Assembly (NCBI GenBank): GCA_027031765.1
Contig: JALVPN010000115.1
Coordinates: 1 to 18,250, forward strand
Length of the DNA stretch: 18,250 bases
Reading direction: 5' to 3'
Source: Promethearchaeota archaeon
GTDB taxonomy: Archaea; Asgardarchaeota; Thorarchaeia; Thorarchaeales; Thorarchaeaceae
In this document: in pieces, positions 1 through 15,677 of the stretch
Layout: every line of letters starts with the position of its first letter
How positions within the stretch are numbered: position 1 is the first letter of the stretch
Position numbers and translations under genes: made by a program
Notes under the pieces: generated by a model
What the model saw: the letters and a program-made list of their open reading frames with translations, nothing else
What the model was told of the DNA's origin: nothing
Database searches by the model: none

Positions 1-209
1 AGGTCGACGGGATTGTCACCGCCTGCGAGTTCTGTGACATCCAGCTCACGCAGGTCCAGTTCGACGAGGAGGTGCACCCGGCAGAACGGATACCCGTCCT
101 AACACTTCCACAACTCTTGGGCCCAGCCATGGGCATTGAAGAGGACAAGCTCGGCATCGACCTCAACCGGATCAGTCCACGTGGCATTCTCGAGGCGTTG
201 GAGGCATGA
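1..209 (+). CDS. hdrB: Heterodisulfide reductase subunit B, C-terminal part (runs off the 5' edge)
   Basis: Manual translation from position 3 gives VDGIVTACEFCDIQLTQVQF...IPVLTLPQLLGPAMGIEEDKLG...LEA*, with TGA at 207-209. This matches the end of the second CCG domain of HdrB (IVTACPFC...IPVLHYxQLLGLAMG). The stop overlaps the hdrA start (ATGA). Confidence 0.85.
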   Translation, partial: VDGIVTACEFCDIQLTQVQFDEEVHPAERIPVLTLPQLLGPAMGIEEDKLGIDLNRISPRGILEALEA

Positions 210-1960
210 TGATGACAGCACAGGAAGAACCAAGGATTGGAGTGTTTGTCTGCCACTGCGGCCACAACATTGCGGGAGTCGTCGATGTTGTCCGGGTGGC
301 CGAGTATGCAAAGTCACTGCCACACGTGGTGTTCGCTACGGATGAGATGTTCATGTGTTCGGACGCAGGACAGCAACTCATCCGGGACAAGATTGCAGAG
401 TATGACCTGAACAGAGTGGTCGTTGCAAGCTGTTCACCACGGATGCACGAGCCCACGTTCAGGCGCGTTGTGGAAGAGGCCGGCCTCAACAGGTACCTCT
501 TCGAACAGGTGAACCTCCGGGAACATGTCTCGTGGTGTCACATGCGAGAGCCTGAGCTCTCCACCGAGAAGGCGATTGACCTAGTCCGCATGGCAGTTGC
601 AAGGGCGGCCAAGCTGGAGGGGCTGCCTGTCAAGAGCGTCAAGGTGACCCCTCGCACGCTCGTTGTCGGTGGCGGGATAACCGGCATCCGGGCCGCCCTC
701 GACATCGCAGACCGTGGCTTCGAGGTCGTCCTTGTGGAGCGTGAGCCCAAGTTGGGCGGCAACCTGGTCAAGTGGAACCATGTTTTTCCGGTGGACAAGA
801 GTGGCAAGAAGATACTCGGCCCGTTGATAAAGCGTGTCAAGTCCCATGAGAGGGTGCGGGTGTTCACCAACAGCGAGGTGTCCGACTTTGACGGTTATAT
901 CGGCAATTTCGTTGCCACCATCCGCAACAACAAGACCGGCAAGGAGGAACAGGTCGAGGTCGGTACGGTGATAATCGCCACGGGGTTCAAGGCATATGAG
1001 CCCGTGGAATACTATGCCTACGGCCAGTCCCCAGACATCATGACCCTCGCGGAGTTCCACCAGCGCCCAGGCGACGAGCTGCTGAAGCGGCCCAGTGACG
1101 GCAGGCCTGTCAAGAAGATAGTATGCATCGGCTGCGTGGGCTCGCGGGAGCCCGGCAAGCAAGGCCACGAGCACTGTTCACGGTACTGCTGTACGGCGGT
1201 GGCAAAGACCGCTGCTGATATCCGGTCCGACGTAGAGGAGGTCGTTGTACTCTACCAAGACGTACGGACATACGGCAAGGGCCACGAGGAGTTCCACCGC
1301 CTTGCCAGGCTCCGATACGTCATGTACAGCAAGTTCCCACGGGAGGAGAAGCCGCAGGTGACCGTGGCCGACGGCGAGCTGACGGTCAAGTGGCACGATG
1401 TCCTCTCCGGCGACGACTTCGAGTTCCACCCTGACATCATTGTCCTGGCATCGGCAATGGTGCCACCGGACGGCATAGACGACGTCGCCAAGATGTTCGG
1501 CCTGACACGCAGTGCTGACGGCTTCTTCAACCCAGAACACATCAAGCTCGCACCACTGACCACTCACACAGCCGGCGTGATGATTGCAGGCACCGCACAG
1601 GCTGCAAAGAACGCCACGGAGTCGGTGGTCGATGCCAGTGGCGCAGCTGCAAAGGCGGTCGGCCTGATGGCACGCGGTGAGGTGGAGATCGAGTCCACGA
1701 CAGCCCAGGTGATTGAAGACCTCTGTTCGTCGTGTCACACCTGCGTCGCGGCCTGTCCCTACGGCGCGATTGCCATGGACGAGTCGAAAGACCCGCCAGT
1801 AGCACATGTGACATCGGCAAAGTGTCACGGGTGCGGCACGTGTGCTGCTGCCTGCCCGAGCAGTGCCATTCTGATGCTCCACTCAACAGATGAGCAGATC
1901 ATGGCCATGGTGGAGGCATTCCTGACACCCGCACCCGAGATTGGAGGAGGTGAGGCGTGA
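206..1960 (+). CDS. hdrA: Heterodisulfide reductase subunit A (FAD, Fe-S), short form lacking the inserted ferredoxin domain
   Basis: N-terminal RIGVFVCHCG..NI, MCS and SCSPRMHE motifs; FAD motif VVGGGITG; CIGCVGSR...CSRYCC cluster motif; two C-terminal CxxCxxCxxxCP motifs. GGAGG at 200-204 precedes three tandem ATGs (206/209/212), so the true start may be 209 or 212. Confidence 0.95.
   Translation: MMMTAQEEPRIGVFVCHCGHNIAGVVDVVRVAEYAKSLPHVVFATDEMFMCSDAGQQLIRDKIAEYDLNRVVVASCSPRMHEPTFRRVVEEAGLNRYLFEQVNLREHVSWCHMREPELSTEKAIDLVRMAVARAAKLEGLPVKSVKVTPRTLVVGGGITGIRAALDIADRGFEVVLVEREPKLGGNLVKWNHVFPVDKSGKKILGPLIKRVKSHERVRVFTNSEVSDFDGYIGNFVATIRNNKTGKEEQVEVGTVIIATGFKAYEPVEYYAYGQSPDIMTLAEFHQRPGDELLKRPSDGRPVKKIVCIGCVGSREPGKQGHEHCSRYCCTAVAKTAADIRSDVEEVVVLYQDVRTYGKGHEEFHRLARLRYVMYSKFPREEKPQVTVADGELTVKWHDVLSGDDFEFHPDIIVLASAMVPPDGIDDVAKMFGLTRSADGFFNPEHIKLAPLTTHTAGVMIAGTAQAAKNATESVVDASGAAAKAVGLMARGEVEIESTTAQVIEDLCSSCHTCVAACPYGAIAMDESKDPPVAHVTSAKCHGCGTCAAACPSSAILMLHSTDEQIMAMVEAFLTPAPEIGGGEA
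1946..1953 (+). promoter_or_regulatory. Shine-Dalgarno site for mvhD, inside the 3' end of hdrA
   Basis: GGAGGTGA lies just upstream of GTG 1957/ATG 1960. Similar GGAGG motifs precede 2404 (2388-2392), 2639 (2628-2633) and 3571 (3556-3560), consistent with a coupled operon. Confidence 0.7.
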
Positions 1961-2638: not shown

Positions 2639-3574
2639 ATGATGGCTGAACCAATACCAGTCGCAATGGGACAGGGCAGCTCCTGCTGGGGCTGTTTCCA
2701 GAGCCTTGTGGACATGCACCTCCGGCTTGCTGATGTCCTACCACTCCTCGACATCAAGTACTGGCAGGCAGTGGTGGACTACAAGCTGGAAGACCTTGAG
2801 AACTACCCCGACAAGTCGATAGTGGTCGGCCTGTACGAGGGGATGGCCCGGACCGAGGAGGACGTCCACCTGCTGAAGCTCATGCGTCAGAAGTGTAAGG
2901 TCCTCGTGGCCTTCGGCACGTGCTCCTGCTACGGTGGCATCCCGGGCCTCGCCAATGCCTGGGACATCGAGGAGTGCTACGATGTCAAGTTCAGGGAGAA
3001 CAAGACATTCTCCGGTGGCAAGGTGCCGACAGAGAACCTGCCACCCATCGAGCCCGTGGTGCATCCGAACAGCGACTACGTCGACTTTGACATCTACCTC
3101 CCCGGCTGCCCGCCCACGTCAGACCTCATTGTGAAGGCAATCACTGCCCTGCTTGAGGGCAAGGAACTTGAGCTGCCGACGTACACGGTCTGCCACTACT
3201 GTCCACGTGAGAAGAAGGAGACCCCAATACCTGAGATCCTCCGGCCGTTCAGGGGGAACGCAGACCCGGACAGGTGCCTCCTCGAACAGGGGTACATCTG
3301 CCTCGGCTCTGCCACCTGGGGCCTCTGTGAGGGACAGTGCGTCAGCAAGGGCGTCACATGCAGGGGCTGTTTTGGCCCGCCACCACCCATCACTCAGGAC
3401 CAGGGCGCAGCCGCCATGTCGATGCTCGGGACATATGCACCCCTGGAGCCGGAGAAGCTCAAGGAACAGGTGCCCGACCCGCTTGGCTGCTTCTACCGGT
3501 TCACCTATCCTTCCAGTCGTCTGGGGCGGATGCGGATACGTCGGGAGGAGCTCAAGGAGGCGAGTGAGGAATGA
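2639..3574 (+). CDS. mvhG: F420-non-reducing [NiFe] hydrogenase small subunit
   Basis: SSCWGC, EG, AFGTCSCYGGIPGLAN and YLPGCPP proximal-cluster motifs; C-terminal VCHYCPR...CLLEQGYICLG...CEGQC...CRGCFGP. Confidence 0.95.
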   Translation: MMAEPIPVAMGQGSSCWGCFQSLVDMHLRLADVLPLLDIKYWQAVVDYKLEDLENYPDKSIVVGLYEGMARTEEDVHLLKLMRQKCKVLVAFGTCSCYGGIPGLANAWDIEECYDVKFRENKTFSGGKVPTENLPPIEPVVHPNSDYVDFDIYLPGCPPTSDLIVKAITALLEGKELELPTYTVCHYCPREKKETPIPEILRPFRGNADPDRCLLEQGYICLGSATWGLCEGQCVSKGVTCRGCFGPPPPITQDQGAAAMSMLGTYAPLEPEKLKEQVPDPLGCFYRFTYPSSRLGRMRIRREELKEASEE

Positions 3575-4887
3575 CTGAGGACAGAGTGATACGAGTAGAG
3601 CCCGTCACCCGACTGGAGGGGCACGGGGCACTGACCATCCGGCTCGGCCCGGGCAACAAGGTCAAGGACATCCAGTTCAATGTGAGCAGTACGCGGTTCT
3701 TCGAGAAGTTCCTTGAAGGCCGCCCGATGGAGGAGGCCCCACGGATTGCACCGCGTATCTGTGGGATATGTCCCATACCACATCACCTCGCATCCGTGAA
3801 GGCGGTCGAGGCAGCATGGGATGTCACCCCACCTCCAGCAGCCATCAAGCTCAGGCGCTTGCTCATTGAGGCCAAGCAGCTCTCCTCCCACGCAATCCAC
3901 TTCTACGCCCTCGCAGCCCCCGACTTTGTGTTCGGGCCGTTCGCAGATCCAGGCGTCCGGAATGTCGCTGCTGTCCTGAAGCACCTGCCCGACGTTGCCG
4001 TACAGGCAATCAAGCTGATGGAGTTCGGTCAGGAGCTGTGCAGGGACATCGGCGCAAAGGCAATCCACCCGACGACGGCAATCCCTGGGGGCATGCTCTC
4101 ACCCCTCAGTGAAGGGGACCGCGACAAGTGGCTGAGGCAGGTCCCGGAGATGATGGAGAACATCAACAAGACGGTGGAGCTGGCCAAGAAGGTCGTCAAC
4201 GACTACATTGATGTGGTCACCAAGGTGGCTGTGACACCGACCTACTACATCGGCCTCAGCAACGACGGCGCCCTCGACATCTATGACGGCACCGTCAGGG
4301 TAATGGACCCGGAGGGCAAGATAGTGGCCGACTTCAAGCCCCCAGAGTACACCGAGTACTATGGCGAGTACATACCAGACCACTCATATGCGACGCACAT
4401 CTACTACAAGCCAGCAGGCTACCCCGACGGCATCTGGAGGGCCAACACACTGGCCAGGTGCAACGTCAACGAGCGCATGGCCACCCCGCTCGCCGATGAG
4501 GCGCTCAAGGAGATGCGTGGACTCGTCGGCCGGCCGTCCCATCACACCTTTGCGTACCACTACGCACGGGTGGTCGAGATGGTGCAGGCTGCAGAGATGA
4601 TACAGCGGCTCCTTGAAGACCCCGAAACCGTCAGTACGGACGTCAAGCTCTCTGATGTGGAGCCAAAGGCAGGTGACGGTGTCGGGATTGTGGAGGCCCC
4701 ACGTGGGACGCTGCTCCACAACTACGTCAGCGACGACAGGGGCATGCTCGTCCGTGCCAACCTGATAGTCGCCACCAACAACAACATCGCTGGGATTGAG
4801 AAGTCCCTGATGGACGCCGCCCGCTTCGTATTCGAACAGGACGGCCTGAAGGAGCTGAGCCTCCCCGAACCACTCGTCAAGACATAG
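3571..4887 (+). CDS. mvhA: Group 3c [NiFe] hydrogenase large subunit lacking the C-terminal Ni-binding motif (VhuA-type split subunit)
   Basis: EPVTRLEGHG, the L1 motif RICGICPIPHH, and VEAPRGTLLHNY / NLIVATNNN are present. There is no L2 motif (DPCxxCxxH) before the TAG at 4885-4887. Confidence 0.93.
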   Translation: MTEDRVIRVEPVTRLEGHGALTIRLGPGNKVKDIQFNVSSTRFFEKFLEGRPMEEAPRIAPRICGICPIPHHLASVKAVEAAWDVTPPPAAIKLRRLLIEAKQLSSHAIHFYALAAPDFVFGPFADPGVRNVAAVLKHLPDVAVQAIKLMEFGQELCRDIGAKAIHPTTAIPGGMLSPLSEGDRDKWLRQVPEMMENINKTVELAKKVVNDYIDVVTKVAVTPTYYIGLSNDGALDIYDGTVRVMDPEGKIVADFKPPEYTEYYGEYIPDHSYATHIYYKPAGYPDGIWRANTLARCNVNERMATPLADEALKEMRGLVGRPSHHTFAYHYARVVEMVQAAEMIQRLLEDPETVSTDVKLSDVEPKAGDGVGIVEAPRGTLLHNYVSDDRGMLVRANLIVATNNNIAGIEKSLMDAARFVFEQDGLKELSLPEPLVKT

Positions 4888-4906
4888 GCCCAAGGACTGA
4901 TGGAGA

Positions 4907-5059
4907 ATGACCGAAGAAATCCCTGAAGGACTGCTCAACCTCCTTGAGATGGTTGTGCGGTGCTATGACTGCTGACTATCATGCGGCGCTCATCTCGTCA
5001 TCGTTGACGAGGAGGGCCGCGAGGTAGTCCGGAAGGAGCTCGTGACCGGCGGTGGATGA
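4907..5059 (+). CDS. vhuU: VhuU-type selenocysteine-containing C-terminal peptide of the hydrogenase large subunit (TGA 4973-4975 = Sec23)
   Basis: Manual translation: MTEEIPEGLLNLLEMVVRCYDC[TGA]LSCGAHLVIVDEEGREVVRKELVTGGG*. It aligns with the MvhA C-terminus (..NLMEMVIRAYDPCLSCATH..), with TGA exactly at the first Cys of the L2 motif. The frame stays protein-like after the TGA and a SECIS-like hairpin follows. Confidence 0.9.
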
Positions 5060-5117
5060 AGGCCCGGCCAAAAGGTGCGTGCCGGGCTGGACGGCCCCGC
5101 AAGGGCCCGCCAGTCAC
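5042..5117 (+). promoter_or_regulatory. Eukaryote-like SECIS element (core 5056-5092) overlapping the vhuU stop codon
   Basis: AUGAA (5056-5060) and GGAC (5089-5092) give tandem G.A/A.G pairs. An 8-bp stem GGCCCGGC/GCCGGGCU (5061-5068/5081-5088) leads to an apical loop with AAAA (5070-5073). A basal helix GUGAC-C-GGCGG/CCGCC-A-GUCAC pairs at 10 of 11 positions. The core is 80 nt downstream of the in-frame UGA. Folded by eye only. Confidence 0.75.
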
Positions 5118-5138
5118 GCTCCTCCCCCACCTTTTTCT
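5118..5138 (+). terminator. Possible archaeal pyrimidine/oligo-T terminator of the hdr-mvh operon
   Basis: GCTCCTCCCCCACCTTTTTCT directly follows the SECIS. T5 tracts are rare in this GC-rich window and the next gene is convergent. Confidence 0.4.
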
Positions 5139-5346
5139 ATGACACGCTACACTGTGGGCTGTCAGGCAGGGCCCGCACCCGGGTCGGCCTGTTCCCCTTT
5201 CCAATCTCTAGCTGTGGGCCCGGGCCCTTCCATGGAGTACCACAGTGATTGCCGGTGGTGTCCAGACCTCGTGCCGGCATGTCCACCACACTGTCACCCA
5301 GTCGGCTCTCGATAGTCGGGGGGTATGAGAGTGTACCAGTGTTGAG

Positions 5347-6312
5347 CTAGGTCCACTGTGACTTTGACCACACGACCGCTATCCCGTTGGCCATGCCCAC
5401 GTAGAGCCACCGCCCGTCCACGGACAGCGACGTGACTGGCCCTTCCTGCCTGATCACCGCGTTGCACTCCAAGCTGTCCTTGTTGAAGACCCGCACCGTC
5501 CTGTCGTAGGAGCCACTGTAGACGAACTCCGCATCAGTTGTAAGGGCCCGGACATCCGAGTCGTGCCCGCTGAGTGTCCCAACGTGGTGCAGACCTGGCA
5601 GAGTGTAGACTAGCACCACATTGTCCCTCGATGCACTGAAGAGGCGTCCTTCATCCACCTCGATGACATACGATGCGTTTCTCGGGCCCTGGTATGGCAG
5701 TACCCCCTTCGTCAGTGGCCGTGGGACGACAGAAATCCCATTCTCCTCCCCTGCAGCGTAGAGATTCTCGTTGTCTGCTGCAAGGGCACAGACGCGGTCG
5801 CAATAGTCATAGAGGACAGTCTTGATATCAAGCGTCCTGCGGTCACGGATCTCAACGGTCGCACCTGATGCCACGTACAGGTGCCTGTCATCGAGTGCGA
5901 GGGCACGTACAGGCCCGGGGTATCCCCCTGATGCCAGCAGCCACTTCCAGCCGGGAAGTGACCAGGCATGGAGCGCTTCAGAACTCAGACCTGCGAGTAC
6001 CCTGTCCTCGTCAACGAGGAGGGCAGACACCGTGCCAGAGAGCCGCCACATACTGCTGTCATAGTGCCATGACCCGACCTTGAAGACCTGGACTCCGTTG
6101 CCGCGGGCCACGAACACCAGCTGGCCTGCTCTCGCTATGTTACTGACGGGCCCTGTAAGCCCCAGCATGACACGTTCCGGCGGGACGAGCCGGGCCTCTG
6201 GCACGTATTTGTGCCGTGACGACACCAATCTGGCTTCCCTCGTGAGGCCTCCCTTGTCACAATGAAAGAAAAAACCTTCGAATACATGTCCTCCTCCCAT
6301 GCTCATCCACAC
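5347..6312 (-). CDS. WD40-repeat beta-propeller protein
   Basis: About 7 repeats of ~40 aa, clearest at LSGHDSDVRALTTDAEFVYSGSYDRTVRVF and LFSASRDNVVLVY. The start is uncertain: the first ~28 codons overlap an AT-rich tract (6261-6275), so TTG 6228 or GTG 6225 may be the real start. Confidence 0.85.
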   Translation of the reverse strand: MWMSMGGGHVFEGFFFHCDKGGLTREARLVSSRHKYVPEARLVPPERVMLGLTGPVSNIARAGQLVFVARGNGVQVFKVGSWHYDSSMWRLSGTVSALLVDEDRVLAGLSSEALHAWSLPGWKWLLASGGYPGPVRALALDDRHLYVASGATVEIRDRRTLDIKTVLYDYCDRVCALAADNENLYAAGEENGISVVPRPLTKGVLPYQGPRNASYVIEVDEGRLFSASRDNVVLVYTLPGLHHVGTLSGHDSDVRALTTDAEFVYSGSYDRTVRVFNKDSLECNAVIRQEGPVTSLSVDGRWLYVGMANGIAVVWSKSQWT

Positions 6313-9200: not shown

Positions 9201-9420
9201 CGTACTTTCAGCAACAGCTACGGCGGACAAGGAACGGAACGGTGGGCCAGTGATGCGGAGAGTGCTTTCGGGGCTCCACGCACTCCTTGCTGGGTGTCCT
9301 CTTGGGGCCAATGCGCGTCGACGGGAGCAGTTTCGAAACTGCAGGCAGGAGACCTGCGATAGGAAGTGTATGGGTCGTACTATGAACACACAGTATGCCC
9401 GTGGTGTGCGGACAGTACGC

Positions 9421-10698
9421 ATGCGGGTGCGCTGGCCACTGGTTGTTGTGGTGGTGCTTGTCGTGGCCCTGCAACTGGGTGTAGGGACTTCCTCAAGCAT
9501 GAGCCCCAGTGCCGGCACCAAGGGGCCTGCGGGCGACACCCAGCCCCATCAGCACCGACAACTTGGGCTGAGCGAAGCAACCGAGCTGAGCCCTCTCTAT
9601 ATCAGTGAGATGGACTACCACTTCATAACCCACGGGGAGTGCTTCCGGTCAGCTGAAGACCCTGACAAGTCCTACCTGCTTGCCATGAGCGTCGTTGACT
9701 CTGGTTCCGACATTGAGGTGCCAGTGTCAGTCTGGGCCTACAACCATACCTCAAGTACAGTCGACCAGATCTCCTCGACGTATCCAGTGCCCTCGGGCAC
9801 AATGTACCTCCATCCCCTCAGTGCCACATACATGGGGCACCAGGTGCTCTGGGGGTACTCGTATGTTCATGGTGTGAGGAAGGTCGCGCTCTACTACTGG
9901 GACGGCACGGACTTCGTAAAGTTCACAAACGAGATTACGCTTGGGGGTGGCGTCTGGACCTGGCACCACTACGAGTACGACTTCAACCATGATGGCATCC
10001 CCGACTTCACCTTCGCATGTTCCTACGGTGGTGGTCAGGTGGGCGTCATCACATGGGACGGTAGTTCCACAATCTCAATCGCATGGCAACTCGACTTCGG
10101 TCTTACGACTCACAGCGGCAGCATTGGCGATATCGACAACGATGGAAAGCCCGAAATCGTGGCCCTCTCGTGGACCGACGAGTCTGTGAAAATCATTGAC
10201 TGGACTGACAACTTCGACTTCAGTCTGCTCACGTCATACGACTTGGCGGCACACAGCATGACCACCGGTGGTGTGGATGCAGTTGTCGGGGATGTTGACA
10301 ATGATGGCGTATCCGAGCTGTTCGTCAGTTGCACAAAGAGCGGAACGCCATGGCTGTATGTCTTCCAGTACACGGGCGGCGAGCTCGTGAACGTAGACAG
10401 CTATCTCCTCGGGACCCGCGAGTTCCCAGACTTCTCGACGGTAGACATCTGTTTCTTCGACCAGGACTCGGTCCCTGATATCTTGGTAGGTACAAATGAG
10501 TCCTTCGAGATACTGAACTGGGACAAGACCACCGGGTTCTCGTGCAAGTACTACTATGAGAACCCCTATGCCCACCACGACCCTCCGCCACAATATGATG
10601 AGTTCAACTACTACATCATCCCGGCAAACTTGGACGATGACGACCAGTCTGAGGTGGCAGTTTCATTCGCCACTTACTCTACTGAAACAAATGCGTAG
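9421..10698 (+). CDS. Exported FG-GAP/VCBS beta-propeller; N-terminal part of a 9421-12366 gene interrupted by an in-frame TAG
   Basis: Signal-peptide-like MRVRWPLVVVVVLVVALQLGVGTSSS at ATG 9421 (upstream starts at 9250/9253/9382 are possible). FG-GAP Ca loops: YDFNHDGIPDF, GDIDNDGKPEIV, GDVDNDGVSELF, FFDQDSVPDILVG, NLDDDDQSEVAV. Confidence 0.8.
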   Translation: MRVRWPLVVVVVLVVALQLGVGTSSSMSPSAGTKGPAGDTQPHQHRQLGLSEATELSPLYISEMDYHFITHGECFRSAEDPDKSYLLAMSVVDSGSDIEVPVSVWAYNHTSSTVDQISSTYPVPSGTMYLHPLSATYMGHQVLWGYSYVHGVRKVALYYWDGTDFVKFTNEITLGGGVWTWHHYEYDFNHDGIPDFTFACSYGGGQVGVITWDGSSTISIAWQLDFGLTTHSGSIGDIDNDGKPEIVALSWTDESVKIIDWTDNFDFSLLTSYDLAAHSMTTGGVDAVVGDVDNDGVSELFVSCTKSGTPWLYVFQYTGGELVNVDSYLLGTREFPDFSTVDICFFDQDSVPDILVGTNESFEILNWDKTTGFSCKYYYENPYAHHDPPPQYDEFNYYIIPANLDDDDQSEVAVSFATYSTETNA

Positions 10699-10728
10699 TA
10701 CCACACCCTTGGTGTCTTTGACAGCGAT

Positions 10729-12366
10729 GTGTCTTTTGACGACGACTCCGACGGGATGCCTAACAAGTGGGAAGAATCTCACGGTCTGGACTACTCCAAC
10801 AGCAGTGATGCATCCCTAGATGGGGACAGGGACGGTCTGACAAACTTGGAGGAGTACCAGAACGGCTGTGACCCTTGGAACAACGACACAGACGCTGATG
10901 GTCTTGCCGACGGGTGGGAGGTCGCCAACGGCCTGAATCCTACTGTTGTTGACACGGATGGCGATGGCCTCGACGACAACTACGAGGTGACGCATGGCCT
11001 CGACCCGTTGAGCCCTGACACCGACGGCGATGGGATGCCTGATGGCTGGGAGGTTGCACACGGTTTCAACGCTACGTACTCTGACGATGGGGTGCTGGAC
11101 GCAGATGGTGACGGTGTGTCCAACTCTGAGGAATACCTGAACGGCTGTGACCCGCTCAAGGCTGACACGGACAATGACGGCCTCCCAGACGGTCTTGAGC
11201 TAGCCTTGCCGCTCAACGCGACCGTGCCGACTGACGGATATGCGGTGTGGGGGCTGCTCGGTGTGTGCGCTGGTGTTGTGGTGCTGGCAGGTCGCCGATG
11301 GCGCGACAAGCAGCTACACCCGTGGCGCCATGACCCCGGAGTGGCCTCGGTCAAGGACGAGGTGCTGAGGGTGCTTGAGTGGTTCAAGATCATGGCGCAG
11401 CGTGCGGCGGAGCTTGAGGACGCACATGACTACAAGGGTGCAGCCCGCCTTCTTGAAAAGCTGCTGAGCATCATTCAGAGAGGACGCAACGACATCATGG
11501 TTATTGGTCGCGATAGGTATGAGGCGCGGGTGGCAGAGCTGGAATGCGCGTTGTGGCGCTGCAGAGTCAAGGCCCACATAGCTGATGCACAGGCCATTGT
11601 TGACAAGTTGAAGTCACGTACGGCCCACATCTGGGATGACGGTTCCCTCCACAAGGCCCTCAAAGATGTGGATGGTGCCCGTGAAGCGGCATCGGCTGAG
11701 CTGAAGGCTGCGCGTGAGGCCGTAGCTCAGGGCCGACTTACAATTGAGGCCGGGTGGGTCACCCAGGCCGAGCATGACCTTGATACGCGCCTGAACGATG
11801 TCACCCAACAGATCCGGAAACGCCTGAGCGCACTCTCTACGGTCAGGGCCAAGGTGGATGAGTTGGAGGATGTGGTGGCGGCCAGCATGGGCAGCGACCC
11901 TCTGGAGGACCGGATTGCTCGGCTGGAGTCTGCACTGGGGGCGCTGCAGCAGGCTGTGAAGTCGCTCGGGGCCGGTCTGGATGTGCTCTTTTCTCCGCAG
12001 GCTGACGCGAAACGTCGACTTGAGAAATGGCAGGTGGACTTGGCGCACGACCTCGGCCTTGACATCCTGGAAGAGGCCTACCTCCGGCTCAACTATCTGA
12101 AGTCACTGGAGGAGCTGACGGGTGAAGGGCCTATTGACCCGAGAATGGAGGAGGCGGCTGCCCGGGATGCCATTGAAGGCGTGCTCATTGAGGCAAGGCG
12201 CGCAGTTGCAGAGGTCGAGCGGATGGATGAGAGCTCAGGTGAGCGCTGGGCCATCGTGGAGGAGGTAAGAGACCGCCTGCTCATGGCCCAGGACCTTGCG
12301 CGACGGTTTCAGTTCACAGAGCTCGAGGGCGAGGTCACGCGCCTGCTGGAACGGCTGTATGAATAG
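10729..12366 (+). CDS. TSP3-like repeat stalk, single TM and long alpha-helical cytoplasmic tail; in-frame continuation of 9421-10698
   Basis: Seven DxDxDG..xE repeats, a TM (YAVWGLLGVCAGVVVLAG) with a basic RRWRDK stop-transfer, then ~350 aa of amphipathic helices. Same frame as the upstream ORF, with no signal peptide or SD of its own. Confidence 0.8.
   Translation: MSFDDDSDGMPNKWEESHGLDYSNSSDASLDGDRDGLTNLEEYQNGCDPWNNDTDADGLADGWEVANGLNPTVVDTDGDGLDDNYEVTHGLDPLSPDTDGDGMPDGWEVAHGFNATYSDDGVLDADGDGVSNSEEYLNGCDPLKADTDNDGLPDGLELALPLNATVPTDGYAVWGLLGVCAGVVVLAGRRWRDKQLHPWRHDPGVASVKDEVLRVLEWFKIMAQRAAELEDAHDYKGAARLLEKLLSIIQRGRNDIMVIGRDRYEARVAELECALWRCRVKAHIADAQAIVDKLKSRTAHIWDDGSLHKALKDVDGAREAASAELKAAREAVAQGRLTIEAGWVTQAEHDLDTRLNDVTQQIRKRLSALSTVRAKVDELEDVVAASMGSDPLEDRIARLESALGALQQAVKSLGAGLDVLFSPQADAKRRLEKWQVDLAHDLGLDILEEAYLRLNYLKSLEELTGEGPIDPRMEEAAARDAIEGVLIEARRAVAEVERMDESSGERWAIVEEVRDRLLMAQDLARRFQFTELEGEVTRLLERLYE
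10738..11232 (+). repeat. Seven intragenic 66/81-bp TSP3-like (DxDxDG) coding repeats
   Basis: Units such as DTDADGLADGWEVANGLNPTVV and DTDGDGLDDNYEVTHGLDPLSP. Confidence 0.85.
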
Positions 12367-13046
12367 TGATGTGCATGTGGGTCAAGGCCTGTGCACCAGC
12401 TGGCCGCCACTTGGCCCGGCCACACTTGGGACACCTGGTACGGCCCCGTGCGAGAGAGTCGAGATGGGGCTTCCCGCAAGTCCCTCAGGGGGTGGTCGGG
12501 CGCCCCATAGCTCTCCGGTGGCAGTACGGTGCTGGGCTGCGATGACGACCACATCCGAGTTTCAGAGCCTGCGCTCAGCTCGTTTCCCAATGGCACCCGG
12601 CGTGCTCCTCGCTGGTGCTGTAAGTCGGGGTGCTGCGGACGCACTCAACGCTGTCACTGGTGGTGTCCGTGAAGACGGGATGCCGCCGGCTGATGACAGA
12701 CATGCGGACAGGTAGCGACGGAGTGGTAGTCGGGCTCTGACAGGTACTGACGGAGCATGGGGTACGCGGGTGTGCCGACGTAGGTCAAGTCTACTGCGGA
12801 CAGGCTGGAGGGGCGCTCCGTGGCTGTACCTGCGATGGGGAGCTGCTGGTGCTTTGGGGCTGGGAGTGTAGTGCGTCGGTGTTGTCATGGCGACCGCAAC
12901 ACTAATTGCGCCCGTTGTGTCAGGGGTGTGTGACCACTGGCAAGGTGCGCCGCGTCCTGATATGCAACGTTTCAACTGACGGTGCGTAGACATGAGGGGG
13001 GCTTGGACGCCAGGTGTGCTGACGGCGGCCCGCACATTGCTGGGGC

Positions 13047-15677
13047 ATGGGAAGTGATCAGTTGTACAGGCACTACTCCGTATTGTTCGCAGTGTCCGTC
13101 CTGATAGCGGCATCGGCAGTTGTTGGCTGCACATGGAATCCTGTCATGTCCTGTCGAGAGTGTGGCTCTGGGGCTGGCCCAGTAGGGAGCGCAGCACCTG
13201 CAGATGGCGCTACCGTCCTCTGGAGCAGCCCGGCCGGGGGCGATGTGAAGTCGTCCCCTGCCCTCTACGATGTCAACGGTGATGGGGTTGTGGATGTTGT
13301 TGTCGGGAGCTGGAATGGTAGCCTGCTCCTGATGTATGGCACCAACGGGTCGGTGTGGGGAAATGTGGTCACCACGGGCCCCATAATGTCCTCACCCACG
13401 CTGGGGGCCTTGACCGGTGATGGCAGTCTTGACATCGCGTTCGGCGACCTGAACGGCAACTTTCTCGTGGTGGACGGTACGAACCTCTCAGTGTTGCTCG
13501 CCATCTCCTTCTCTGGTGCTGTCCTTGCATCGTCTGCAGTTGGTGATGTTGACGGTGATGGTGACATGGATGTGACAGTGGGCACTGAGGGGAACTATAC
13601 GTGCGCCATCGATGCAGCAAACGAGTCTGTGACGTGGGAGTTCAGTACCCAAGGGGGTGTGTTGTCTTCTGCTGCCCTTGGTGATGTCGACGGTGACGGT
13701 GACATGGATGCCGTTTTCGGGTGTTGGGACCGGAGGGTCTACGCCCTCGACGGTGCCACTGGCAATGTTCTATGGTCATACGAGACCGGTGATGAGGTAT
13801 GGTCCTCGCCTGCACTGGGTGATGTGGACGCTGATGGTATCTGTGAGGTGGTCATCGGCAGCGAGGACGGACACGTATACGTACTGGAAGGTGACACCGG
13901 CAACACGGTCTGGTCACATGATGCTGGGGCCGCTGTCACAGCCTCACCTGCGCTTGGCGATGTCGATGGTGACGGTGACCTTGATGTGGTCGTGGGTGCC
14001 TTTGATGGCTGGATGTATGCTCTTGATGGCACGACAGGCTCGCTCCTGTGGTCCTTCAGTGCTGGCGCCGGGACTGTTTCATCGCCTGCGCTCGCCGACC
14101 TCAATGGCGATGGGGGCCTCGACGTCGTCTTCGGCGACGGCAACGGCCGGGTATGGGCACTCATGGGCACCAACGCCAGCGTCCTGTGGTCCTTCCAGAC
14201 AGGAGGTGTTGTGGGCTCGTCCCCGTCCGTCGGGGACATCGATGGCGATGGTGACCTGGACGTGGTAGTGGGCTCTGATGATGACACGGTATACGCACTC
14301 GAGGGCTCCTCGGGCCCGGGCCGGGTATACTGGGAGGGCTCGCGCGGTGACATGGCTTTCCGGAGGACGGGATGCCTCGACGACATAGACCCTGACGGCG
14401 ACATGCTCTCGGACTACTCTGAGGCACTCTATGGCACCGATAGCAGTGACGTGGACACCGACGACGACGGTCTTGCTGACGGGTGGGAGGTCGCCAATGG
14501 CCTCGACCCTACTGTTGTTGACACAGATGGCGACGGTCTCGACGACAACTACGAGGTGATCCATGGCCTCGACCCGCTGAGCCCTGACACCGATGGCGAT
14601 GGGATGCCTGACGAGTGGGAGGTGTCGCATGGCCTCAATGCAACAGATGCCAGTGATGCTGCACAGGACCCCGACCATGACGGTCTTTCCAACCTCGGGG
14701 AGTACCAGCACGGGTGTGACCCGGGTAATGCTGACACGGATGGTGATGGTCTGGCCGATGGCTGGGAGGTCGCCCACGGCCTGGATCCAACCGATGTGGA
14801 CTCGGACGGCGATGGTATGCCTGACGGCTGGGAGGTCGACCATGGCCTCAATGCCGGAGATGCCGGGGACGCAGCACTTGACGGTGACAACGATGGTCTG
14901 ACAAACCTTGCTGAGTACCAGAACGGGTGTGAGCCCGGGAATGCTGACACGGATGGTGATGGTCTGGCTGACGGGTGGGAGGTGGCCAACGGCCTCGACC
15001 CCACTGTCAGTGACAGCGACAGTGACGGCCTGATTGACGGGTGGGAGGTGGAACATGGTCTTGACCCAAGTTCCAACGACACGGACGATGATGGCCTCGC
15101 TGATGGCTGGGAGGTCGCCCACGGCCTCAATGCTACTGACACCGACACCGATGGTGATGGTCTCTCGGACAGCTGGGAGGTGTCTGAGGGCCTGGATGCG
15201 ACCAGCGACGACAGTGACGGTGACGGCATGCCTGATGGCTGGGAGGTCGCCCACGGTCTTGACCCGGCAAGTCCGGAGGATGCTGCACTGGACCCTGATG
15301 GTGATGGCCTGACAGGCCTCGAGGAGTACGTGAACGGTTGCGACCCTCGTGACAATGACACTGACAGCGATGGCATGCCTGATGGCTGGGAAGTGGCCCA
15401 TGGCCTGGACCCGACCGATGCCACAGATGCAGCAGCTGACAGTGACAGCGATGGCCTGTCGGCTCTGGAAGAGTACCAGCATGGCAGTGACCCACGGGAC
15501 ATCGACACAGACGACGACGGTCTCTCTGATGGCTGGGAGGCGTCAATGGGGCTGGATGCTGCCTCCCCCCTAGACGGCTACGCCATCTGGGCGTTTCTCA
15601 CTGCTGCCGCCATTGTCCTCGTCGTTGTCATCGCGTACTCCCTGCGGCGACGTGGACTGTTCCCACAGCGTCCATGA
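13047..15677 (+). CDS. Type I membrane surface protein: FG-GAP/PQQ-like beta-propeller, 17 TSP3-like repeats, C-terminal TM
   Basis: Hydrophobic N-terminal signal (SVLFAVSVLIAASAVVGC); eight ~44-aa blades of consensus LWS...SSPALGDVDGDGDLDVVVG..DG.VYALDG; Asp-rich repeats; TM YAIWAFLTAAAIVLVVVIAYSL; short basic tail RRRGLFPQRP. Confidence 0.92.
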   Translation: MGSDQLYRHYSVLFAVSVLIAASAVVGCTWNPVMSCRECGSGAGPVGSAAPADGATVLWSSPAGGDVKSSPALYDVNGDGVVDVVVGSWNGSLLLMYGTNGSVWGNVVTTGPIMSSPTLGALTGDGSLDIAFGDLNGNFLVVDGTNLSVLLAISFSGAVLASSAVGDVDGDGDMDVTVGTEGNYTCAIDAANESVTWEFSTQGGVLSSAALGDVDGDGDMDAVFGCWDRRVYALDGATGNVLWSYETGDEVWSSPALGDVDADGICEVVIGSEDGHVYVLEGDTGNTVWSHDAGAAVTASPALGDVDGDGDLDVVVGAFDGWMYALDGTTGSLLWSFSAGAGTVSSPALADLNGDGGLDVVFGDGNGRVWALMGTNASVLWSFQTGGVVGSSPSVGDIDGDGDLDVVVGSDDDTVYALEGSSGPGRVYWEGSRGDMAFRRTGCLDDIDPDGDMLSDYSEALYGTDSSDVDTDDDGLADGWEVANGLDPTVVDTDGDGLDDNYEVIHGLDPLSPDTDGDGMPDEWEVSHGLNATDASDAAQDPDHDGLSNLGEYQHGCDPGNADTDGDGLADGWEVAHGLDPTDVDSDGDGMPDGWEVDHGLNAGDAGDAALDGDNDGLTNLAEYQNGCEPGNADTDGDGLADGWEVANGLDPTVSDSDSDGLIDGWEVEHGLDPSSNDTDDDGLADGWEVAHGLNATDTDTDGDGLSDSWEVSEGLDATSDDSDGDGMPDGWEVAHGLDPASPEDAALDPDGDGLTGLEEYVNGCDPRDNDTDSDGMPDGWEVAHGLDPTDATDAAADSDSDGLSALEEYQHGSDPRDIDTDDDGLSDGWEASMGLDAASPLDGYAIWAFLTAAAIVLVVVIAYSLRRRGLFPQRP
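13215..14306 (+). repeat. Eight ~132-bp FG-GAP/PQQ-like blade repeats
   Basis: Loops DVNGDG, ALTGDG, DVDGDG, DVDGDG, DVDADG, DVDGDG, DLNGDG and DIDGDG recur about every 44 aa. Confidence 0.85.
14388..15572 (+). repeat. Seventeen 66/81-bp TSP3-like coding repeats with higher-order organisation
   Basis: 22-aa and 27-aa DxDxDG units. The stretch AATGCTGACACGGATGGTGATGGTCTGGC is identical at 14727 and 14940, 213 bp (71 aa) apart. Confidence 0.9.

Follow-up and report, generated by a model that had tools for sequence, protein, structure and literature searches.

How is the nickel site of a hydrogenase completed when the gene for its large subunit ends before the second nickel-binding motif, and is the TGA inside the short reading frame that follows this gene a stop or a codon for selenocysteine (Sec)? 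These questions are raised by the stretch of DNA analysed here (the window, 18,250 nucleotides at its full length), in which a compact, plus-strand operon with an HdrA-like gene in first place is found. The HdrA-like flavoprotein (584 aa, 206-1960, plus strand) was assigned by Pfam and by PDB alignment to 8rvu_a (E 5e-152). It is followed on the same strand by MvhD/VhuD (148 aa, 1957-2403, with a TAG stop), which was assigned by Pfam FlpD (E 4e-52) and PDB alignments, by the small subunit MvhG/VhuG (311 aa, 2639-3574; Pfam Oxidored_q6, E 1.5e-21) and by VhuA (438 aa, 3571-4887), the large subunit of a [NiFe(Se)] hydrogenase, which was assigned by translation and PDB alignment. A further plus-strand ORF of 77 aa (2404-2637), taken from the ORF list and the sequence, is wedged between mvhD and mvhG, with its ATG abutting the TAG of mvhD; it gave 0 matches in the Pfam search. 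Elsewhere in the window (9250-15677) lie two large genes in which FG-GAP propeller and bacterial TSP3 repeats occur and which probably encode surface proteins.

The translation of the VhuA-like ORF, which is terminated by TAG at 4885-4887, contains the N-terminal R-I-C-G-I-C-P-I-P-H motif, and the DxCxxCxxH motif, sought at the C-terminus of the same translation, is absent. The best PDB match of VhuA was the split chain 9sfi_g (418 aa, E 6e-131, 440 bits, as against 357 bits for unsplit MvhA), which aligns to residues 7-421 of the 438-aa protein, and the alignment with the unsplit MvhA 5odc_F (473 aa) reaches only residue 407 of this MvhA. Entry 9sfi also holds a separate 27-aa chain named as an 'F420 non-reducing hydrogenase subunit'.

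After a spacer of 19 nt (4888-4906), a 50-codon ORF (vhuU, 4907-5059, plus strand) begins in a frame different from that of vhuA (4907 mod 3 = 2 vs 3571 mod 3 = 1), and its translation, its PDB matches and its conservation in 41 loci and across the phylum point to a selenopeptide gene. Its position just 3' of a large-subunit gene that lacks the C-terminal Ni motif is the one by which a VhuU is recognized. The ORF reads as 22 residues (M-T-E-E at the start, R-C-Y-D-C at the end), an in-frame TGA at codon 23 (4973-4975, plus strand), L-S-C-G-A-H with His29 at 4991-4993 and a tail of 21 aa, after which TGA at 5057-5059 ends the frame, so that D-x-(U/C)-x-x-C-x-x-H is present as D-C-U-L-S-C-G-A-H with UGA at the first ligand position. 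The sequence-only reading had described the large subunit stopping before its second Ni motif and the 50-codon ORF lying 19 nt on in another frame, and all of its coordinates and counts proved correct.

Alignment of the vhuU peptide to solved structures placed it at the very C-terminus of MvhA, FrhA and sulfhydrogenase alpha subunits (E 7e-6 to 1e-3), with the TGA column opposite the first Cys of D-P-C-x-x-C-x-x-H in these alignments, and its place on unsplit MvhA is at residues about 423-450. Residues 5-30 align with the 27-aa chain 9sfi_M, in which an X, presumably the non-standard residue selenocysteine, stands opposite the TGA. Codon 23 is predicted, from its alignment to this X and to the Cys of MvhA, to encode both Sec and a Ni ligand. 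Because the peptide matches the C-termini of solved [NiFe] large subunits (E 7e-6 to 2e-4) and the same ORF and TGA recur in relatives, vhuU is not a chance ORF, and the proposal that it supplies the Ni-binding end missing from VhuA, by way of a UGA-encoded Sec, is supported.

Under table 11 vhuU ends after 22 codons, which is how gene callers would read it and which is compatible with the TGA being a real stop and the ORF being the decayed C-terminus of a large subunit, in a hydrogenase that is inactive or uses other ligands. The frame beyond the TGA was followed in relatives to weigh this explanation. A scan of species-representative genomes with VhuA gave 55 loci, mostly in Thorarchaeota MAGs and at 77-85% identity, and the organism was placed as Thorarchaeota-like on account of these matches. 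All 41 loci that retain sequence 3' of a split vhuA, those of Hermod-, Hel- and Atabeyarchaeia included, have D-C-U-L-S-C-[G/A]-A-H with TGA, and the conserved tail after L-S-C-[GA]-A-H is kept in the same 41/41 loci and in well over 100 census genomes. The ORF stop is likewise UGA in 41/41 related loci, preceded by A in all TGA forms checked except one (L121). In the census of 301 genomes of the phylum, the peptide was found in 246 genomes, and exactly one in-frame TGA was present in 148 of the 150 best matches. The expectation of the sequence-only reading that homologues keep the TGA was thus borne out when it was checked. Such conservation of the frame after the TGA, together with the Sec machinery and the covarying SECIS described below, speaks against decay, and a real stop is regarded as having very little chance of being the right explanation.

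Four distant, unsplit homologues (L069-L071 and L075, ~41% identity, from Bathyarchaeia and 'Promethearchaeota') read D-P-C at the ligand position. The canonical, otherwise near-invariant Pro before the Sec or Cys ligand (DPU/DPC) is replaced by Cys in the window, giving D-C-U at 4967-4975 (codons 21-23), and D-C-U is also found in 41/41 related loci and in 32 further census loci with the motif; the lone Cys form has D-C-C. Judged from these alignments, DCU is a lineage variant of the motif in which the ligand positions are kept. As the motif is DCU and not DPU, the active-site geometry may differ from that of characterised enzymes. Discussion of the Pro-to-Cys change (DPU to DCU) was not found in the literature, as far as its accessible text goes. 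It is conceivable, at rather long odds, that the Asgard Vhu is a distinct [NiFeSe] active-site variant with a thiol directly beside the Ni-bound selenolate, and Cys and Sec, as neighbours, could become linked in a reversible selenenylsulfide that protects or gates the active site.

The lone Cys form is a VhuU paralogue in another genome of the phylum (L117, G219:C96:5350-5650, minus strand) with TGT for TGA, D-C-C-L-S-C and a TAA stop. By sequence it is one half of a natural Sec/Cys pair, in which the SECIS core has been lost along with Sec; its TGT and TAA together mean that the loss of Sec goes with the loss of the AUGA stop.

A sequencing or assembly artefact, by which the true codon would be TGC or TGT or the vhuA-vhuU split would be a frameshift error, was considered with regard to the source of the DNA, a metagenome assembly in 229 contigs. 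Positions 4960-4983 are covered by contigs of four public runs, with the window itself in one DNA run and the copies of relatives in three metatranscriptome runs. In the contigs of all four runs, no letter other than those of TGA was found at 4973-4975 and neither TGC nor TGT occurred, while neighbouring synonymous sites vary; in this comparison the DNA run may be the source of the assembly and is then not independent, and RNA-library contigs can contain DNA. The contigs of the DNA run (X1) break near 4970-4975, in the conserved region of the Sec motif, which could be taken in favour of an artefact; several contigs of relatives pile up there (depth 156 vs 12), a sign of several strains or paralogues occurring together in the sample. 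Against an artefact stand the same TGA and the same split in independent assemblies from many studies, the split in a solved structure, and the single reading of the codon in the four runs, which came out in favour of TGA on a point that the sequence-only reading had named as a possible refutation. The artefact is the least probable of the explanations weighed, with next to no chance of being true. Word shares of 0.06-0.07 in most sequencing runs were considered as a habitat signal and rejected, being conserved parts of relatives.

The genome (2.95 Mb, 95% complete, in 229 contigs) was searched for the Sec machinery, for which the sequence-only reading had proposed to look, and tRNA-Sec, SepSecS, SelD, a PSTK-like and an EFSec-like gene were found. 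A tRNA-Sec gene (G000:C107:10653-10739) was detected at 59.8 bits against the Rfam cut-off of 47, and ARAGORN called it tRNA-SeC with anticodon tca. SepSecS (378 bits, E 4e-113) is located ~760 bases from tRNA-Sec, and a PSTK-like gene (127 bits, below the NCBIfam equivalog cut-off of 290) lies on the other side, so that the three form a compact Sec cluster within 2.8 kb (G000:C107:9851-12623). An EFSec-like gene of the selB family, cut by a contig end, scored 263 bits against a cut-off of 242. The selD gene (211 bits; G000:C31:46515-47324, minus strand) is a predicted selenoprotein gene, with one in-frame TGA in the H-G-U-S-C-K active-site region. Its stop is the UGA of an AUGA, after which a type II-like SECIS fold, GA and a GCAA-capped hairpin were found by eye.

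Read-through of the UGA as Cys or Trp, by near-cognate tRNAs or by a general reassignment of UGA, would by itself also conserve the frame. The dedicated Sec genes and the SECIS are present, table 11 leaves the other ORFs of the operon uninterrupted and UGA is also the terminator of vhuU itself, all of which argue against this possibility, and the lone TGT homologue has lost the AUGA stop, as expected of a Sec/Cys pair. Decoding as Cys or Trp is very unlikely, and it ranks first among the three alternatives weighed.

Decoding of the UGA as Sec would be directed by a SECIS element predicted at 5056-5092 (plus strand), which is eukaryote-like (loki-type, type I) according to the consensus fold of 38 sequences and matches in layout the element of Lokiarchaeota in PMC4989117, with AUGA...GA as its kink-turn core. 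It consists of AUGA (5056-5059), the UGA of which is the vhuU stop and around which the RNA reads A-UGA-A, a GC-rich upper stem of 8 bp (5061-5068 with 5081-5088), an apical loop of 12 nt starting with C-A-A-A-A, and G-G-A-C at 5089-5092. Type I eSECIS elements are described by AUGA, an upper stem of 7-15 bp, an A-rich loop and GA, located at or just after the stop (PMC11227280), and each of these is present in the 5056-5092 element. ATGAA and GAC are essentially invariant in the 38 aligned 3' ends. Compensatory changes occur in 8/8 upper-stem pairs of the consensus fold (n=38), and 93.8% of the upper-stem cells are paired; sliding the partners by 1-3 columns lowers this share to 19-48%. The covariation score was 0.669 vs 0.332 for shuffled alignments, and the observed values were reached in 0/500 shuffles.

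Below this core, a lower helix (within 5042-5117, plus strand; 5042-5044 and 5046-5051 with 5108-5113 and 5115-5117) was predicted by RNAalifold, joining the last coding bases of vhuU to the 3'UTR. Of its 9 pairs, 8 vary to some extent in both partners (n=35); the helix is weaker than the upper stem, and its compensatory change includes a synonymous codon position. A short conserved hairpin with a GCAA-type loop (5094-5106, plus strand) is located downstream of the SECIS core and ahead of the 3' strand of this helix. A GCAA hairpin right after the SECIS GA also follows selD in this genome and recurs in most of the vhuU 3'UTRs of Thorarchaeota; hairpin and lower helix together turn the element into a three-way junction. 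No mention of the hairpin was found in the accessible text of PMC11227280. Further downstream, a T5 run (5132-5136, plus strand) follows a conserved CUCCUY tract, and with T-rich tracts at the same place in relatives it is a likely archaeal transcription stop.

The SECIS structure is clear only from the comparative alignment, because the fold of the single sequence is uninformative: the MFE fold of 5057-5145 lacked the SECIS hairpin, and its energy did not stand out from that of shuffled sequences (z = -0.9). A scan of 4700-5500 with Rfam (E up to 10) gave chance-level matches only and no SECIS family, Rfam being without a model for SECIS of the vhuU type. With a covariance model built from the 38 VhuU SECIS, only the copy in the window was found among the 150 of 1436 genome candidates scored, so this model is of no use as a genome-wide selenoprotein finder; the selD SECIS, being type II-like, differs in shape from that of vhuU. 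An alternative SECIS with AUGA at 5139-5142 and a long-range pairing of CACUGUGG with CCACAGUG (5151-5158 with 5240-5247) was tried and dropped, since ~97 nt separate its two arms and its AUGA does not border on the stem.

With the X in the 9sfi alignment, the conserved TGA, the Sec machinery and the covarying SECIS all in agreement, the [NiFeSe] VhuU-type interpretation given by the sequence-only reading is supported. We hold it to be highly probable that vhuU is the separately encoded C-terminal piece of an Hdr-associated group 3c (Vhu/Mvh-type) F420-non-reducing [NiFeSe] hydrogenase of a Thorarchaeota-like Asgard archaeon, the UGA at 4973-4975 being decoded as Sec under the direction of the SECIS.

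In [NiFe] hydrogenases generally, a specific endopeptidase cuts off the C-terminal extension once the metal has been inserted. The C-terminal extension of 21 aa that follows His29 of vhuU (4994-5056, plus strand) resembles the C-terminal extension of FrhA in 3zfs_A, its last codons being at the same time the 5' strand of the lower helix, and one HycI-family protease gene is present in the genome. Homology and this single HycI-type gene suggest that cleavage would take place after about His29.

The working of the locus can be proposed as follows. UGA-23 would be decoded as Sec by the archaeal/eukaryal pathway with tRNA-Sec, PSTK, SepSecS, SelD and EFSec, and EFSec with Sec-tRNA-Sec would act at this codon as long as the SECIS hairpin stays folded. 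The second UGA follows 84 nt later and is part of the SECIS core, which the ribosome would have to unfold in order to reach this codon; termination there is expected because of this unfolding, as is also argued in PMC4989117. Read-through at the second UGA should cost little, given that the tail is expected to be cut off after about His29. The Ni-Fe site would take its two C-terminal ligands from the vhuU peptide (Sec23 and Cys26) and its two N-terminal ligands from RxCGxC of VhuA. The 21-aa tail would probably be removed by the HycI-type protease after metal insertion, and the mature peptide of ~29-30 aa would stay bound to VhuA, as in the 9sfi complex. Together with MvhG, MvhD and the HdrA-like protein, the enzyme may pass electrons from H2 to the Hdr-type flavin module.

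Whether selenium is also used elsewhere in the operon was answered by the partner subunits. The sequence-only reading had stated that HdrA and MvhD carry Cys, which holds for MvhD, in which Cys is present at all conserved positions of the PDB alignments with no in-frame stop, and does not hold for HdrA. The HdrA-like protein has, within its own residues about 195-245, D-K-S-G-K opposite D-C-S-M-C of the methanogen HdrA 8rvu_a, with K-S-G-K at the CxxC/U site, where Methanococcales have Sec, and lacks the inserted ferredoxin domain of ~72 aa (8rvu_a residues about 243-316 being unmatched). The Sec site of HdrA is reported as a CxxU motif (PMC13188914), and the C-S-M-C site of the methanogen HdrA appears to be this motif. 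The further statement that vhuU is the only selenium-dependent part of the operon stands, because HdrA has lost the motif, rather than using Cys in it, and MvhD has Cys. Further Sec subunits of the enzyme encoded elsewhere were considered and dropped, since an in-frame stop was present in 0/7 of the MvhD/FlpD-family genes matched in the genome.

An annotation without vhuU leaves the operon looking like that of a hydrogenase with only half its nickel ligands, and anyone reconstructing the metabolism of this Thorarchaeota-like genome would be misled into taking its H2 metabolism to be broken or independent of selenium. With vhuU included, the organism is marked as selenium-dependent for its Hdr-linked hydrogenase.

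Compared with known systems, the locus resembles the VhuA/VhuU of Methanococcales (PDB 9sfi/9t1s) in the split of the large subunit at nearly the same place, in the small peptide with the second Ni motif and X at the TGA position, and in the presence of the HdrA, VhuD and VhuG partners. It differs in the motif (D-C-U-L-S-C here, D-P-X-Y-S-C in the solved Methanococcales-type VhuU), in the SECIS, which is of the eukaryote-like AUGA...GA type here and of the GAA_A type there (PMC11227280), and in VhuD and HdrA, which are not selenoproteins here. The unsplit MvhA of Methanothermobacter and Methanothermococcus (5odc, 9sw2) and the unsplit homologues L069-L071 and L075 likewise represent group 3c large subunits with the operon partners, but they are single polypeptides with D-P-C (Cys) and have no SECIS.

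Closer likeness is found among the Asgard archaea, for which Sec-containing VhuU had already been reported (PMC4989117, PMC11227280, PMC13188914), as the sequence-only reading stated. A Sec-VhuU with a eukaryote-like lokiSECIS has been known from Lokiarchaeota since 2016 (Mariotti et al. 2016, PMC4989117). The Loki VhuU is, as here, a peptide of ~50 aa with one Sec; its SECIS too combines AUGA with a stem and an A-rich loop, and the AUGA of Loki VhuU.1 includes the stop codon, exactly like that of vhuU in the window (PMC4989117). The Loki SECIS has a stem of 9 bp and a loop of 11 nt, where the element here has 8 bp and 12 nt, and the 3' core is AA in the Loki VhuU and GA here (PMC4989117).

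In a survey of >400 Asgard genomes, the FrhA/MvhA/VhuU family was reported in 68% of the Sec-using Asgard archaea (Huang et al. 2024, PMC11227280), and 77% of the Thorarchaeia were reported to use Sec (PMC11227280). Structures like eSECIS are on record for Thorarchaeota (cited in PMC11227280 and PMC13188914), and those of the Thorarchaeia frhA family are given as type I eSECIS-like, with loops of the G[U/G]AAA type and lower-stem [U/C]GG_C[C/U][A/G] pairs (PMC11227280). The locus in the window is of the same frhA/mvhA/vhuU gene family and from the same class of organisms, and its aligned relatives show the features reported there (PMC11227280); its own loop begins with CAAAA and not with G[U/G]AAA. 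Novelty is low because Sec-VhuU and this SECIS type have been published for both Lokiarchaeia and Thorarchaeia (PMC4989117, PMC11227280), and vhuU of the window is a correct re-discovery and a useful annotation fix, adding one more well-supported case to the published pattern.
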